Positions 1 through 4,321 of a DNA stretch of 4,321 nucleotides are shown here, piece after piece. This DNA comes from a virus. Lineage: Duplodnaviria; Heunggongvirae; Uroviricota; Caudoviricetes. The first letter of the stretch is position 1. Each line of letters begins with the position of its first letter. The translations under genes and the position numbers were made by a program. The stretch lies in IMG/VR virus record IMGVR_UViG_2778261593_000010, positions 1 through 4,321 of that record; one strand, written 5' to 3'. The notes under the pieces were generated by a model. That model made no database searches, was not told the origin of the DNA, and saw nothing but the letters and a program-made list of their open reading frames with translations.

Positions 1-402
1 ATCGCCCCGTTCACCATTACACCTGAACTTATCGCCGCGGCGAAGGATGCCAAAAAGCGGGAAATTGAGGCATGGCGTACAGAACAGGAAGCGCAGCCGT
101 TCACGTTCAAATGGAACGGTCGTACCTGGAACGCTGGCCCCGACTCACTGGCTCGCCTTTATCCGGTAGTAATGGCGGCGAAATCCGATACGGCACGGAA
201 CGAGATGACGTGGGGTGACGCTGATAATCAACAGGTGAAACTGTCGATGCCGGAACTGGAAGAACTGGCGGCAGCAATGGCGCAGGCGCAGGTCGATCGC
301 AATGACGAGATTTATCGCCGTCAGCGACAGATGAAGGACGTGCTGGATAGCCTTAATAATCTTGCCGACATCCGCGCTTTTCAGGCTGGAGAGTCAGAAT
401 GA
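1..402 (+). CDS. 3' portion of a phage tail-fibre-assembly / tail-chaperone-like protein (DUF4376-like C-terminal region); 5' end lies outside the window
   Basis: Frame 1 is open from base 1 to the TGA at 400-402 (134 codons with no stop); the ORF track's start at 172 is only the first in-frame ATG. Codon usage is typical of enterobacteria. The W/G/D-containing stretch (FTFKWNGRTWNAG ... MTWGDADNQQVKLSMPELEELAAAMAQ) resembles, from memory, phage tail fibre assembly / DUF4376 proteins. The stop overlaps the next start (ATGA at 399-402). Confidence 0.75.
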   Translation: MAPFTITPELIAAAKDAKKREIEAWRTEQEAQPFTFKWNGRTWNAGPDSLARLYPVVMAAKSDTARNEMTWGDADNQQVKLSMPELEELAAAMAQAQVDRNDEIYRRQRQMKDVLDSLNNLADIRAFQAGESE

Positions 403-1112
403 AATGGGAAAAGGCAATTCTGCGCCCGTCAGCCATGAACATTAAATGCTCTGTGGTTTGCCTGCATCCATGGTCAGAAAATACCGGAAACATCAAACCA
501 TCGGGGCGTTATCTCAGCCCCGAAAATGCTGTATCTGCACTTTTACCCTATCTGAAAGAAAACACAGAAAAGGACATTGTGGCGCTGTTATTTTGCGCTC
601 CTTCTGCTGGCGAGTTTTTATCACTCGCCAGGCAATTTTCAGGCGCATTTCCGTTGCCGGAGGTGGGACGAATGTCCCGCATGATCTCCAGCCAGCTTTC
701 ACTGGCCATCAGCAGAATGCAAATCCCCGCCAGACCGGCAACATCACTTCCGGAACCGATAATGCTGTCGACACAGACCACTCGCAGCATGTCGCTGGCG
801 GCAACCATTGCACAGGCAGCCACTCCTGCCGCCACATCACCGGAAACATTGTCATCATCACTGCATCAGTTCATGAATGCGAGAGATAAAGCTCTACAGG
901 AAATCGCTGATCAGCAGGCCGCACTCCGGCAAAAATTTTGCCCGGTGTGGCGCTTTTGCTACAAGGGAGCCCTCAGCCAGGCCGCAGTGCTGATACAAAA
1001 AAACATCCCACACCCTGAGTGGGTTTTTACAGCTGTGATGCTGTTCGTCGGCGATGATCTCTCATCACTAAGGGAAGCACTACATGACCCAGATGATTGT
1101 CCTTGCGCTTGA
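399..1112 (+). CDS. Hypothetical protein, 237 aa, with an Ala/Ser/Thr/Pro-rich low-complexity centre and a predicted helical Ala/Gln-rich C-terminal part; function unknown (a short tape-measure-like or linker protein is speculation only)
   Basis: A 714-nt ORF; start ATG 399 overlaps the upstream stop (ATGA) with GGAGAG at 388-393 as a ribosome-binding site; its 3' end overlaps the next gene by 29 nt. Against it: several rare codons (AGA, AGG, ATA, CGA), 7 Cys, and a minus-strand ORF (548-835) sharing wobble positions with better-looking codon usage. Confidence 0.55.
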   Translation: MKWEKAILRPSAMNIKCSVVCLHPWSENTGNIKPSGRYLSPENAVSALLPYLKENTEKDIVALLFCAPSAGEFLSLARQFSGAFPLPEVGRMSRMISSQLSLAISRMQIPARPATSLPEPIMLSTQTTRSMSLAATIAQAATPAATSPETLSSSLHQFMNARDKALQEIADQQAALRQKFCPVWRFCYKGALSQAAVLIQKNIPHPEWVFTAVMLFVGDDLSSLREALHDPDDCPCA

Positions 1113-1659
1113 CGGGGAAGCCATTCTGCTGCGCAACATCACCGTCAGCGCCACCATGCAACTACCGGACAAAGATATGTCCGGACAGTCAACCAGCACC
1201 ACGAGCGCCCAGCAGGGAAGCAAGGCTAAAGAGCTGCGCGTGTCGGGGGTTATTGATTTTAACGATGAAGCTATTCTGACCCGTATTTTTCAGCTTGCGG
1301 AGGCAACAGAAAGCAATGGCGCGAAAAAAACATATCGCATTGCTAACGCTACCGCGAAGGCAATCAATATGCGACAGGGGGTATTTTCTGGTGGCATTGA
1401 TGCCACGGAACAACAGGGAAAAATGCACTGGCAGGTCACCTTTACTCTCAGGGAAAAATTAAGCGTGCCAGAGAAAGCGTCTGCACGTAGCGGTTCGCAG
1501 AAAACCATCGCCAGACAGCAGACCCAGAACGGTAGCGAACAGGCACCAGACAAAGGCATGAATACGCAAAGTTCGTTCTGGAAAAAAATCAATGATGCCG
1601 TTGGCTCTGGTCTGGATGCTGTTGGCATCGGGAGCGTGAAAGAGGAAGGGAAAACATGA
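1084..1659 (+). CDS. Hypothetical protein, 191 aa; possibly a gpU-like tail tube-initiator/tail protein (low-confidence recollection), with a Gln/Ser-rich C-terminal tail
   Basis: Clean ORF with typical codon usage; GGGA upstream of ATG 1084; stop overlaps the next start (ATGA at 1656-1659). The segments LRVSGVIDF, ILTRIFQLAEATESNG and HWQVTFTLREKL resemble, from memory, P2 gpU-family proteins; not verified. Confidence 0.8.
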   Translation: MTQMIVLALDGEAILLRNITVSATMQLPDKDMSGQSTSTTSAQQGSKAKELRVSGVIDFNDEAILTRIFQLAEATESNGAKKTYRIANATAKAINMRQGVFSGGIDATEQQGKMHWQVTFTLREKLSVPEKASARSGSQKTIARQQTQNGSEQAPDKGMNTQSSFWKKINDAVGSGLDAVGIGSVKEEGKT

Positions 1660-3353
1660 AATTGATACAACGCTGCATGATTAATGGCGAACGGGTGGAA
1701 ATTGCCGATATAAGCCTTGTTCTTACCCTGAATGCTGCCGGTCGTGGCTTCATTTCTGTTAACAATCTGTCACCCGAACACAGCCTTGCCGGCGCAATGG
1801 TACAAATTGATCTCGGCCGTGACGGTGAAGCATGGCGCTATTTCTCCGGCTACATTGAGCGCGATCAACCTGCTGAAAATGGCTCACGTCGCCTTTTTAT
1901 TCGTGAAGCGGCTGCTGTGCTGGATTTTGATTTCCCTTGCTCCATGCAACACCCGACGTTGCGGAGGGTACTCGATAATCTGGGGCGACAAAGCGGTATC
2001 GTTTTTATCACTCCGGATGCGGATTATGCCAGTATACCAACTCCCTACATCACCCACAGCGGCAGCGGAGCACAACTGCTCAGCCAACTGGGGCGAGCAT
2101 TCAGTATCAGCGATTACGTCTGGCACCCTATGCCGGACGGTTCTGTATTTGTGGGAAGCGCAGCTGATTCACGATTTGCCAGTATTACAATGCCGGATAT
2201 TCCGCAACAGTACACACTCGGGCAAGGCGGCGGAAACAGCATCGACATCATGTTCATGGAAACTGTGCGACCGGGCGTGAATCTTCCCGCCGGGCGTATT
2301 ACCCGCGTAGCCCTCAACAACGAGAAAATGACTCTGACGTGGGAGCGCCTTACCGTCACGGGCAGCCCTGTCTCCAAATCACCATTACGCAGACAGATGG
2401 AAACACAGTTCCCGGAACTGGCCAGCGGCACACTACACACCAGGCTGGCGCGCGTCATTGCACCAACGGAATCCGCCACCCTGGGCGATGTGGCCGACAG
2501 CTTCCGTCCACGCTACGCCGTGGACGTGCAACTGCTCGATGAGGACGGCAACGATAAAAGCGATACGCCTGTTTACCCGGCAGTCCCACTCCCCGTCCCG
2601 ATGGCTGGTAGCGAGGCGGGATGTTTTGCCTACCCGCCGGCAGGCACCATCGTGGAAATATCTAACATTGAAGGGCGCCCGGATAAACCTGTTATCAGGC
2701 AAATCTTACCCGCTGGCCGTAACCTGCCTGATGTAAAGCCCGGCGAACAACTGCAGCAACAGCGCGCAGAAGTGTTTCAGCGCGTCACGACTGACGGAAG
2801 CTGGCACAGAGAAACAGACCAGCAAATCAGGGAGCAGTCAGCCACCCGCACAATTAACAGTGATGCAGAAGAGCGCACCACAACAACCAGAACAACCACA
2901 GTACGGGCAAACGACATAACCAGTGTTCTGGGAACCAGCAAGCTGGCGGCAGGACAAATAGAGCACCTTACTACCGGCCATTACGCGATCGCAGCCAGCG
3001 AGCATATCCAGATGGTAGCGCAGGATTTGCTGACTAAACTCAAAGGGGCAATATCCACAATTGAGCAGGACCTGACTGAAAACGTGGGAGGCCGCAGAAC
3101 ATGCCGGGCGGACGGCGGTCTGAAGTTTACAGCCCCGACAGTATTTATTGGTCGCGGTGGCTCACGGGAAAAATCCGAACTTAATCTGCTGACGTTGTTG
3201 ATTGATATTCTGGATCTGATTCAATTGCTGGCCACGCACACTGCAAACCATACCCACAGCAACACTGGCGCACCAATGAACAGCGGCGAACTTGCCGCAG
3301 ATGCCCTGCAGGCTACGAGCCTGCGCGAAAAATACGGGGACCTTATCGCCTGA
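1656..3353 (+). CDS. Large hypothetical protein, 565 aa; candidate fused phage baseplate hub/spike-like protein (gpD/gp27/VgrG-like N-terminal region, Thr-rich linker, C-terminal HxH tip motif)
   Basis: A 1698-nt ORF with a strong ribosome-binding site (GAGGAAGGG, 1641-1649) and start coupled to the upstream stop. N-terminal segments (LVLTLNAAGRGF, RYFSGYIERD, RRLFIREAAAVLDF, TLRRVLDNLGRQSGI) resemble the Phage_GPD/VgrG N-domain from memory. The C-terminus has HTANHTHSNTGAP, reminiscent of the HxH apex motif of gpV/gp5-type spikes. No Walker A or obvious nuclease motifs. Confidence 0.85.
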   Translation: MKLIQRCMINGERVEIADISLVLTLNAAGRGFISVNNLSPEHSLAGAMVQIDLGRDGEAWRYFSGYIERDQPAENGSRRLFIREAAAVLDFDFPCSMQHPTLRRVLDNLGRQSGIVFITPDADYASIPTPYITHSGSGAQLLSQLGRAFSISDYVWHPMPDGSVFVGSAADSRFASITMPDIPQQYTLGQGGGNSIDIMFMETVRPGVNLPAGRITRVALNNEKMTLTWERLTVTGSPVSKSPLRRQMETQFPELASGTLHTRLARVIAPTESATLGDVADSFRPRYAVDVQLLDEDGNDKSDTPVYPAVPLPVPMAGSEAGCFAYPPAGTIVEISNIEGRPDKPVIRQILPAGRNLPDVKPGEQLQQQRAEVFQRVTTDGSWHRETDQQIREQSATRTINSDAEERTTTTRTTTVRANDITSVLGTSKLAAGQIEHLTTGHYAIAASEHIQMVAQDLLTKLKGAISTIEQDLTENVGGRRTCRADGGLKFTAPTVFIGRGGSREKSELNLLTLLIDILDLIQLLATHTANHTHSNTGAPMNSGELAADALQATSLREKYGDLIA

Positions 3354-3392
3354 TCACCTGGACATAAAAGCCACATAAACGCCCATCACACA

Positions 3393-3417
3393 ACGCACGG
3401 CTTCGGCCGTGCGTTTT
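3393..3417 (+). terminator. Rho-independent terminator of the plus-strand operon
   Basis: Perfect 9-bp stem ACGCACGGC / GCCGTGCGT (3393-3401 and 3406-3414) with a TTCG tetraloop, followed by a T-run (3414-3417); 40 nt downstream of the stop of the 565-aa gene. Confidence 0.8.
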
Positions 3418-3475
3418 CATATCTGCCACCTGATTAATGCGTTCTGCGCGCCATTCTGGCGCTGTATGCGCACAC

Positions 3476-3514
3476 CGCGTAAACGGTGTGACGTAAAGCG
3501 TGAGGTGACGTAAA
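3476..3514. repeat. Short direct repeats: CGTAAA three times (3478, 3492, 3509), two of them as the 10-mer GTGACGTAAA (3488-3497, 3505-3514)
   Basis: Seen directly in the sequence; spacing 14 and 17 bp; lies in the ORF-free region between the two terminators. Candidate protein-binding iterons or a recombination-site remnant. Confidence 0.4.
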
Positions 3515-3895
3515 CCGCGCTACCCCCTCCAACCCGCGGGTTTTGTGTCGAAACACTTTTTCAGTTTTCTGCCATGCAAAAATGACCGCCAGCCCGCGCA
3601 GCAACTGAGGGAAAAGCGAAGATCTGAAATTTCACGCTTTGAAATTTTTTGCAGTTTTCAGAGGGATTTTTACGATCTCATGAATGGCAGGAGAAAGAAA
3701 ACAGGCTGATATTAAAAGAGTTTTCATACTTTACGTGGGACAAGACGCGATCGCGAAAGGATCGCATCAAAAAATCTTCAAACAACGAAGCCAGACGCGG
3801 CGCGGCCTGCGTAAGATTGAGAGTCAAAATTAAACTGAAAAAAGGATCAATACCGCGCCTCGATCGCACATGACGATCTACGCAGCAACAGGACG

Positions 3896-3917
3896 AAAAA
3901 ACCGGCGCGAACGCCGG
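3896..3917 (-). terminator. Rho-independent terminator on the minus strand
   Basis: On the minus strand: CCGGCG-UUCG-CGCCGG (6-bp all-GC stem, UUCG tetraloop; plus coordinates 3902-3917) followed by six U (plus A-run 3896-3901). On the plus strand the A-run precedes the hairpin, so it terminates only leftward transcription. Confidence 0.7.
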
Positions 3918-3960
3918 CGGAAGCATGTATCAAATGCGTGATTGAATAATGTCTGCGGTC
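3896..3960 (-). ncRNA. Candidate ~65-nt small RNA transcribed leftward, divergent from the hok-like gene
   Basis: Bounded by a predicted minus-strand promoter (-35 TTGAGG, -10 TATAAA) and a minus-strand intrinsic terminator (3896-3917). The interval holds no credible ORF (only a 6-codon ATG frame). Length is similar to Sok-type antitoxin RNAs, but it does not overlap the predicted hok leader. Confidence 0.35.
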
Positions 3961-3966
3961 GGGAAT

Positions 3967-3994
3967 TTTATATCAGAAGGCTGACGGGCCTCAA
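3967..3994 (-). promoter_or_regulatory. Putative sigma70-type promoter for the leftward small RNA
   Basis: Minus strand: -35 TTGAGG (plus 3989-3994), 16-bp spacer, -10 TATAAA (plus 3967-3972). By-eye match only. Confidence 0.35.
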
Positions 3995-3998
3995 CGGA

Positions 3999-4028
3999 TT
4001 GATACAAGGGAAAAAACCAGGCTAGAAT
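3999..4028 (+). promoter_or_regulatory. Putative sigma70-type promoter for the hok-like transcript
   Basis: -35 TTGATA (3999-4004), 18-bp spacer, -10 TAGAAT (4023-4028); predicted start near 4036, giving a ~145-nt leader. Its -35 lies 4 bp from the -35 of the divergent minus-strand promoter. Confidence 0.4.
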
Positions 4029-4078
4029 TCGCGCGGGTGCCTTTCGGCTGATGGCTGGAGGGAATACCTGAAGGCCGG

Positions 4079-4153
4079 ATGTGGAAAGGCCCCGGAAAAC
4101 ACTTTTGTTTAACCGAGGCCCTAACCGTCTACCCTAAGCAAGTGATAGGTTAG
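4079..4153 (+). CDS. Possible 24-codon leader ORF in the hok-like mRNA leader (MWKGPGKHFCLTEALTVYPKQVIG)
   Basis: ATG at 4079 preceded by GAAGG (4070-4074); TAG at 4151-4153; same frame as hok-like gene and ends 27 nt before its ATG. It may be fortuitous. Confidence 0.25.
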   Translation: MWKGPGKHFCLTEALTVYPKQVIG

Positions 4154-4180
4154 CGCCTCCCTGAAAAAGGAGCAAGCGCT

Positions 4181-4321
4181 ATGTCGCAAAAATCGCTTAC
4201 GGCCATCACGTTCTGCGTGACGGCAATCCTCATCATCTGGATGCTGCACGGTTCGCTGTGCGAAATACGGATGAGCTTCTGGGGAGCGGAGTTTGCGGCG
4301 TTCTTACAGTGTAAGCAGTAA
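4181..4321 (+). CDS. hok: Hok/Gef-family type I toxin (small membrane-depolarising peptide), 46 aa, closest by memory to HokA-type paralogs
   Basis: Not in the ORF track (below its size cut-off). ATG 4181 has a ribosome-binding site AAGGAG (4167-4172, 8-nt spacing); TAA at 4319-4321. Product MSQKSLTAITFCVTAILIIWMLHGSLCEIRMSFWGAEFAAFLQCKQ has an N-terminal transmembrane helix followed by the family-defining SLCEIR motif and an E-x-AAF C-terminal segment (compare Hok of plasmid R1: ...[23 protein letters not shown]...). Confidence 0.85.
   Translation: MSQKSLTAITFCVTAILIIWMLHGSLCEIRMSFWGAEFAAFLQCKQ

Follow-up and report, generated by a model that had tools for sequence, protein, structure and literature searches.

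A probable one-chain hub-spike protein of an HP1-type contractile phage tail and its predicted helical HxH tip

A stretch of viral DNA of 4,321 nt (IMG/VR record IMGVR_UViG_2778261593_000010, positions 1 to 4,321; Caudoviricetes), which is called the window in the following, contains a long open reading frame (ORF) of 565 aa. It raises the questions whether a phage encodes the hub and the spike of its contractile tail in one chain, and with what kind of tip such a spike ends. The ORF starts with ATG, and its limits (Table 1) are exactly those that had been given in an earlier reading made without database searches (the sequence-only reading). The ratio of nonsynonymous to synonymous substitution rates (dN/dS) was 0.12-0.14 in comparison with the nearest Escherichia coli orthologues, and thus the ORF is a coding gene under selection. 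Sequence comparison, synteny, and fold comparison on predicted monomer models were used to analyze its folds, its one-chain fusion and its place in the operon. Based on these results, we consider it very likely that its product is the hub-spike at the centre of a contractile phage tail of the HP1 type (Peduoviridae).

The protein is covered over its whole length by the family profile phrog_2258, annotated as 'baseplate protein' (E 2e-230, residues 1-565 against positions 1-544 of the 544 profile positions). Orthologues were detected by tblastn in HP1, HP2, K139/Kappa, ESSI-2, vB_YenM_324, and other Peduoviridae. The orthologues of HP1 (orf35, 533 aa) and K139/Kappa (orf39/kp45, 543 aa) are 37-41% identical over the first 390-450 residues, they occupy the same last-gene position, and they have the same fused architecture and the same C-terminal LATHTH motif. 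Their C-terminal third has diverged, and the tblastn coverage ends at residue 389-452. A family profile was also searched against 1.8 billion representatives, of which 917 (at 50% identity) matched with E<=1e-3. A search of the PDB with the single sequence resulted in chance matches only, e.g., levoglucosan kinase with an E-value of 0.4, and no study of the hub-spike protein emerged from a literature search that covered HP1 orf35, HP1-like VgrG, and the baseplates of Hpunavirus. The kind of protein is well known and already hinted at in databases, by names such as 'baseplate protein' and 'Vgr family protein'. The analysis supplies a domain-level annotation for a protein that is mostly recorded as 'hypothetical' and once as a VgrG of a type VI secretion system (T6SS), and HP1 orf35 and many prophage orthologues would be a tail hub and spike in one chain.

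The genomic context is that of a phage tail. In HP1 (orf33-34-35), in Kappa (kp43-45), and in E. coli AJ1 the hub-spike gene is the final gene of the tail module and follows a homologue of ORF34. In the window, the stop codon of ORF34 and the start of the hub-spike ORF overlap, and ORF34 is always found directly upstream of the hub gene, in fused and split loci alike. Chromosomal prophage regions of E. coli match the window at 96.5-97.5% identity. In strain AJ1 (96.5% identity) the region of the window is the end of a complete prophage, which combines P2-type head genes, capsid and terminase included, with an HP1-type tail module. The order of its tail genes is sheath (DUF2586), tube, tape measure, DUF2590, baseplate J, tail protein, and fibres, followed by a DUF4376 protein, a hypothetical protein, the 'baseplate complex protein', the hub-spike gene and hok/gef, after which the chromosome begins.

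The prophages also bear on the question whether the copy in the window is in use. The sequences most similar to the window (97.5% identity) are located in E. coli K_EC180 (NZ_CP062203.1, 1228585-1249488) and in several enterotoxigenic E. coli (ETEC) strains from pigs. In these elements the integrase is frameshifted, and the genes for portal, capsid, sheath, tube, tape measure, and baseplate J/I have been lost. They have retained ogr, the fibre genes, orf33-35, hok, and the Com/methyltransferase pair. At least 80% of the window is covered in only 48 of the 1748 matching genomes. Hence, the window copy may not be in use, which weighs against a working tail protein at this locus. The molecular identity would be the same, but the gene would be a relic in a defective prophage, either unused or assembling with parts from a co-resident HP1- or P2-type phage. 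The ORF is, however, intact at 565 aa and has the low dN/dS value given above, an otherwise complete prophage exists in AJ1 at 96.5% identity, and the window is too short to reveal its own context. We regard a relic as possible, and rather unlikely.

The first module of the probable hub-spike comprises residues 1 to about 235, which in the predicted model form a compact hub fold of the gp27/gp44/gpD type; the relation is at the fold level only. In the fold comparison, the highest score was obtained with the MuSo2 43 kDa tail protein (20.5; 220 aligned at 2.5 Å), followed by Mu gp44 (19.2; 221 at 2.4 Å), the Neisseria homologue (18.8; 216 at 2.2 Å), the E217 hub gp41 (17.4; 223 at 3.7 Å), and the hubs of pyocin R2 (15.9; 217 at 2.9 Å) and PhiTE (15.9; 215 at 3.4 Å). 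Pfam had no match to residues 1-235 even at an E-value of 10. Mu-type hubs and P2 gpD exceed the module in length by about 100-150 residues. A hub fold at the N-terminus had been proposed in the sequence-only reading, and this proposal is borne out by the model comparison, whereas the proposed length of about 300 residues was too large.

A side observation concerns the distribution of sequence differences within the gene. A patch of 520 nt in the hub (nt 1710-2226, residues ~19-191) contains 43 of the 45 differences to the K_EC180 orthologue and 44 of the 49 differences to the AJ1 orthologue. Compared with these nearest orthologues, the synonymous rate dS was ~0.21 in the hub versus ~0-0.06 in the remainder of the gene. 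The patch looks like a recombination mosaic that is limited to the hub module.

The second module was modelled with AlphaFold2 (AF2) as a fragment, residues 240-565, together with 50 distant homologues at ~30% identity. The mean value of the predicted local distance difference test (pLDDT) was 87. Residues 240-450 had values of about >90 (85-97 in the OB-fold domain and 91-98 in the shaft), and the values for residues 456-499 were low, i.e., 43-73. A Foldseek search of the PDB with this model retrieved the spikes of various contractile systems, namely VgrG1 (E 2.5e-6, TM-score 0.24), Mu gp45 (E 2e-5, 0.64), the PhiTE spike (E 1.6e-4, 0.33), the E217 spike (E 6.4e-4, 0.49), the R2 pyocin spike (E 1.0e-3, 0.58), P2 gpV (E 1.5e-3, 0.72), and the phi92 spike (E 9.7e-3, 0.37), all TM-scores being normalised to the target. 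At the profile level, residues 312-347 aligned to the OB region of VgrG1 in the PDB, and a VgrG TIGRFAM matched weakly at residues 264-362. Further downstream, residues 409-497 had a weak profile match to the beta-helix of T4 gp5 (E 0.03-0.2), and matches to the VgrG helix were also weak; a VgrG was matched at E 6e-4. In the model, residues ~260-455 are an OB-fold followed by a shaft of the gpV/gp5/VgrG type. DSSP classified the shaft of the monomer model mostly as 'coil', and it consists of confident extended segments without partners; presumably it is an intertwined beta-helix.

The one-chain architecture was analyzed with the full-length model. Its best Foldseek matches were AlgoCIS (7aef_q, 1.1e-17), Anabaena CIS (2.7e-17), Pvc8 (9e-17), VgrG (4e-16), and Afp8 (2.8e-14); the matches to spikes of extracellular contractile injection systems (eCIS) included 9qgm_8A (9e-17), 6j0m_A (2.8e-15), and 6rbk_C (2.8e-14). 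Proteins that consist of a hub only ranked below these one-chain hub-spikes. The VgrG/Afp8 architecture that had been suggested from the sequence is thus supported by the top matches, and in many relatives the two parts are encoded by two adjacent genes. Among the best 148 of the 917 relatives, 11 were fused, 63 were spike-only, 28 were hub-only, and 46 were fragments. The hub-only proteins cover the profile positions 1 to ~227/230, the spike-only proteins begin at ~238-242, and phrog_4011 matches residues 243-559 only. A metagenomic locus contains the HP1_ORF34 gene, then a gene of 228 aa, and then an overlapping gene of 317 aa. The first of these two proteins corresponds to residues 1-231 (36% identity, E 2e-50), the second to residues 244-557 (32% identity, E 2e-49). 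The same split into adjacent and overlapping hub and spike genes was found in Vibrio phage 1.202.O. Because the genes of the split relatives end and start there, the fusion junction was placed at residues ~232-243. Fused and split states both occur within one family and with the same gene order, and the family offers a clear natural case of a contractile injection system in which genes have fused or separated at a domain boundary.

VgrG, Afp8, Pvc8, and the AlgoCIS and Anabaena CIS spikes have the same one-chain order of a gp27-like hub, an OB-fold, and a beta-helix. They belong to non-phage injection systems, and their blunt beta-helix is capped by a separate PAAR-type tip protein. In contrast, the hub-spike described here belongs to a phage with capsid genes and ends in a tip domain of its own, and the annotation of the AJ1 prophage contains no PAAR gene. 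The presence of capsid genes and the lack of an annotated PAAR partner are the reasons why it is not regarded as an eCIS spike.

The similarity to VgrG also leads to another explanation, namely that the protein is a T6SS VgrG, encoded by an orphan vgrG, which delivers bacterial effectors rather than serving a phage tail. The NCBI annotation pipeline (PGAP) names the orthologue WP_191632069.1 'type VI secretion system Vgr family protein', several VgrGs are among the best structural matches, and the families TIGR01646 and TIGR03361 match weakly. However, the scores were 18.6 bits versus a cut-off of 121.8 for TIGR01646 and 15.9 versus 186.35 for TIGR03361. The gene stands at the end of a phage tail operon, and the genes around it are those of a phage (tape measure, baseplate J, fibres, lysis, capsid, and terminase), with none that belongs to a T6SS. 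Orthologues are present in the isolated phages HP1, HP2, K139, ESSI-2, and vB_YenM_324, and the hub has ~235 aa, in contrast to ~370 aa of the gp27-like part of VgrG. The T6SS VgrG identity was rejected on the family scores and the phage gene context, and in our view there is next to no likelihood that it is correct. A VgrG-like architecture is not in itself evidence for a T6SS, which calls for caution in annotation.

Compared with well-characterised phages, the probable hub-spike would work like P2 gpD and gpV joined in one chain. In P2, the hub gpD (387 aa, ~150 residues longer than the hub here) and the spike gpV (211 aa) come from two genes that lie in different operons, and neither has significant similarity in sequence to the protein described here. 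Separate genes are also found for Mu gp44 and gp45 and for the 43 kDa tail proteins of MuSo2 and Neisseria, for which the identity is 12-16% and the hubs are ~100 residues longer. T4 has the same three layers in gp27, gp5, and gp5.4, i.e., a hub, a spike with an OB-fold and a beta-helix, and a tip, and the fold of gp27 matches. In T4, however, these are three separate proteins and gp5 contains a lysozyme domain, whereas here one chain is found, without lysozyme and with an HxH tip. The T4 spike tip is a PAAR protein (PMC12407873).

A Thr-rich stretch within the spike had been taken in the sequence-only reading for a low-complexity linker, encoded by an imperfect direct repeat of ACAACCA. The stretch is indeed present: EERTTTTRTTTVRA (residues 405-418, nt 2868-2909) contains 7 Thr in 14 residues, a density that was reached in 39 of 5000 shuffles of the protein. 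The repeat is also present, at nt 2883-2889 and 2892-2898, but the positions first assigned lie one base too far to the left, and its two copies, 9 nt apart, are identical over all 7 nt and not imperfect. Both are made of the Thr codons ACA and ACC, so that the repeat adds nothing beyond the peptide. If the stretch were a flexible linker, slippage at ACAACCA or glycosylation might follow. However, it is located ~170 residues downstream of the hub-spike junction, within the spike shaft, where its pLDDT is ~96-97. The length of residues 400-425 was constant in 28 of 28 close and in 49 of 50 distant homologues, and E405, R412, and D420 were invariant in the close relatives. In other lineages Val, Leu, Ile, or Tyr are found at the Thr positions, as beta-strand positions would allow, and the Thr content is thus lineage-specific. 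The comparison of linker lengths across homologues, which had been proposed as a check, revealed the true length variation elsewhere, at residues 455-499. A flexible linker at this place is accordingly hardly credible. The DNA repeat was also tried as a site of slippage or variation and was rejected, because it represents runs of Thr codons in a segment of fixed length.

The last element is the C-terminus, for which a metal-binding HxH apex of the gpV/gp5 type had been suggested. The motif is found in HTANHTHSNTGAP (residues 528-540) as H532/H534. An HxH anywhere in the protein was obtained by chance in 1018 of 5000 shuffles, and thus the motif per se is unremarkable and its weight comes from its conservation. 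Both histidines were invariant in the 28 close homologues and present in 48 of the 50 distant homologues (~30% identity). Among 200 proteins with the C-terminal domain, 198 contained HxH (163 of them as HTH), and it is shared by HP1 orf35 (LATHTHRG) and Kappa kp45 (LATHTHGG). Conservation among homologues had been chosen beforehand as the result on which the suggestion should stand or fall, and the motif turned out to be conserved. In the two exceptions Leu/Val replaces His/His. This should be tolerable at a buried axial site and has a parallel in the His-to-Phe mutant of P2 gpV (gpV-FF), which infects as the wild type (bioRxiv 10.1101/2023.02.25.529910). In the same study HxH was described as the only universally conserved spike feature, which marks the C-terminal apex domain. 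The apex of P2 gpV comprises residues 191-211, a beta structure of 21 residues that is loaded with Fe and ends 12 residues after HxH (bioRxiv 10.1101/2023.02.25.529910).

The local motif HxHP..G resembles the sequence HKHPGDSGG of the P2 gpV apex. The predicted setting is different. In both AF2 models HxH is flanked by the helices 511-530 and 543-560 and accompanied by a Pro/Gly-rich loop (pLDDT ~74-95), and 31 residues follow from HxH to the C-terminus. A conical beta apex of the gpV type around HxH was not found in the models, and the predicted context is helical. Therefore, the suggested likeness to the gpV/gp5 apex holds for the motif and its conservation in 198 of 200 proteins, but not for its setting, which is helix-flanked instead of a beta apex of 21 residues. 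In the 50 distant homologues, hydrophobic residues take up about 4 of every 7 positions in helix 511-530 (511/512, 514/515, 518/519, 521/522, 525/526, and 529/530), and the second helix (546-563) has a single a/d stripe at 546, 553, 556, 560, and 563. This pattern fits an inner coiled-coil helix with a groove for an outer helix, from which we infer a trimer of hairpins. A profile of the C-terminal domain had no significant match in the PDB or in Pfam at an E-value of 10; the best one was the Lpp coiled coil with E ~1.

Some relatives, fused as well as split, do not contain the helix-HxH-helix and end in a short Cys/His segment, ICPF[TM]GKPHVD.STTV[FY]AGK. Examples are gp41 of Vibrio phage 1.202.O (a Canoevirus; locus L005, 6666-7361) and the proteins P0132 and P0133. 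The Cys/His C-terminus of gp41 had no match in Pfam, and its likeness to one PAAR repeat is an impression only. Such alternative C-termini point to a tip that can be exchanged as a module.

The helical HxH tip is the sole element of the protein that might be new. As a tentative proposal, to which we give somewhat less than even chances, the C-terminal ~60 residues are a structurally new class of spike tip, in which a trimer of hairpins, similar to a six-helix bundle, has its turn closed by a metal cage of six histidines, in place of the beta apex of gpV and of the PAAR cone that T4 and T6SS have as a separate part. The tip cassette would be either helix-HxH-helix or Cys/His, on hubs and spikes that are either fused or split. 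If this is true, HP1-type phages offer a natural series on what a spike tip must do. A real helical HxH tip would mean that the 'universally conserved' histidine cage can sit on a quite different scaffold, and it would bear on the purpose of the cage and the apex, the P2 apex being dispensable in the laboratory.

The helix-HxH-helix domain could also have a function other than piercing, e.g., as a module for trimerisation or registration, as an intramolecular chaperone, or as a membrane-active helical hairpin that is released after penetration. HxH cages occur in fibres too, where they are thought to hold the chains in register, and a role in registration or as an intramolecular chaperone has been proposed for the HxH cages of tail fibres and tailspikes. 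The domain is helical, one of its helices is very hydrophobic, no known apex was matched by sequence, and P2 can infect without its apex in the laboratory. On the other hand, the polarity of the spike, from hub to OB-fold to shaft, sets the C-terminus distal in every solved relative, the short Cys/His C-terminus substitutes for the domain in some relatives, as a tip module would, and the P2 beta-helix folds without the apex, so that a registration role is not required. A function other than that of a tip is therefore judged improbable.

The baseplate centres of Mu and T4 are organised similarly to that of P2. In P2, the centre is composed of three gpD, six gpU, and a gpV trimer (bioRxiv 10.64898/2026.09.14.750843). 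By analogy to P2, Mu, T4, and the T6SS, three copies of the hub-spike would form the centre of the baseplate. The ring of hubs would adapt the six-fold tube to the three-fold spike, probably via ORF34, whose gene lies where that of gpU is found beside gpD in P2; judging solely from this gene order, ORF34 may have a gpU-like role as tube initiator. The three shafts would intertwine, and contraction of the sheath would drive the spike through the outer membrane of the host, ahead of the tube. The last ~60 residues would form the trimer of helical hairpins, with the inner helices 511-530 extending the three-fold axis. The chain would turn at H532-x-H534, and the amphipathic helix 543-560 would pack back. 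The three HxH motifs, brought together on the axis, could form a six-histidine cage for Fe or Zn as in the gpV-type apex, and this cage would cap and stiffen the tip.

Several results weigh against parts of this interpretation. The match of Pfam Phage_base_V (PF04717) to residues 310-347 was below threshold (E 0.02, 15.6 bits versus a cut-off of 23.8), and the TIGRFAM scores given above likewise indicate weak membership in the VgrG families. An hhalign comparison with P2 gpD had a probability of 0.2% and was not significant, nor was the comparison of family profiles with P2 gpV, in which only the OB motif aligned. For ORF34, a search of the PDB by sequence and with a profile of five sequences matched no solved structure, and similarity to P2 gpU was not detected by hhalign. 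The model is of low quality at residues 460-510. A helical tip, as predicted, is unlike every solved HxH apex, and possibly no sharp apex is formed. The oligomeric state, the intertwined beta-helix, the six-helix-bundle tip, the binding of metal, and the role of ORF34 are all inferred. Taken together, the similarity of hub and spike to known proteins, for which a profile and structure check had been proposed, is strong at the fold level and weak in sequence profiles, and the interpretation of the sequence-only reading is supported apart from the linker. The features of the locus are compiled in Table 1.

Table 1. Features of the hub-spike gene and its surroundings in the window.
Feature	Position (nt)	Strand	Evidence
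Upstream partner, 191 aa, HP1_ORF34 'baseplate complex protein'	1084..1659	+	Pfam PF25759, E 8e-54
Whole ORF, probable hub-spike fusion protein, HP1 orf35 orthologue	1656..3353	+	phrog_2258, tblastn, synteny, dN/dS
Predicted hub module, gp27 / Mu gp44 / P2 gpD-type, residues 1-235	1656..2360	+	Fold comparison on predicted model
Fusion junction, residues 232-243	2349..2384	+	Split relatives: hub gene ends, spike gene begins
Predicted OB-fold domain, gpV/gp5/VgrG-type, residues ~260-352	2433..2711	+	Weak Pfam/PDB profile, AF2 model, Foldseek
Predicted spike shaft, residues ~353-455, extended beta segments, including Thr-rich 405-418	2712..3020	+	pLDDT, weak profile matches
Variable-length shaft segment, residues 456-499	3021..3152	+	15-160 residues (50 distant homologues), 39-61 (28 close homologues)
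Predicted C-terminal tip domain, residues 506-565: helix 511-530, HxH (H532, H534; nt 3249-3257), loop, helix 543-560	3171..3350	+	AF2, conservation
Hairpin with U-run, probable intrinsic terminator of the tail operon	3392..3419	+	10-bp GC-rich stem, UUUU

Upstream of ORF34, the gene at the orf33 position (nt 399-1112, + strand) encodes a protein of 237 aa that belongs to phrog_1677/31292 and has no match in Pfam. It is conserved across HP1-type phages, as is ORF34. The ORF at nt 1-402 (+ strand) encodes the C-terminal portion of a DUF4376 protein related to tail fibres, whose start lies ~174 nt before the window; the ATG at nt 172, which had been listed by the ORF finder, is internal and not the true start of this protein.

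Downstream of the hub-spike gene, a hairpin begins 39 nt past the stop codon. Its folding energy is -18.7 kcal/mol (z -6.5), and it was equalled by none of 200 shuffles. The tail operon probably terminates at this hairpin, which a simple scan for the terminator consensus missed. The ~680 nt between the spike gene and a toxin-antitoxin module further downstream (nt 3354-4034) are apparently non-coding. A search of the whole window against Rfam matched nothing at the gathering thresholds. Below threshold, a match to sok (RF01794) was obtained at nt 4035-4194, with 42.6 bits versus a gathering score of 59 (E 5e-8). It is part of a hok/sok-type toxin-antitoxin module at the end of the prophage (nt 4035-4321, + strand), which contains the Hok/Gef ORF at nt 4181-4321.

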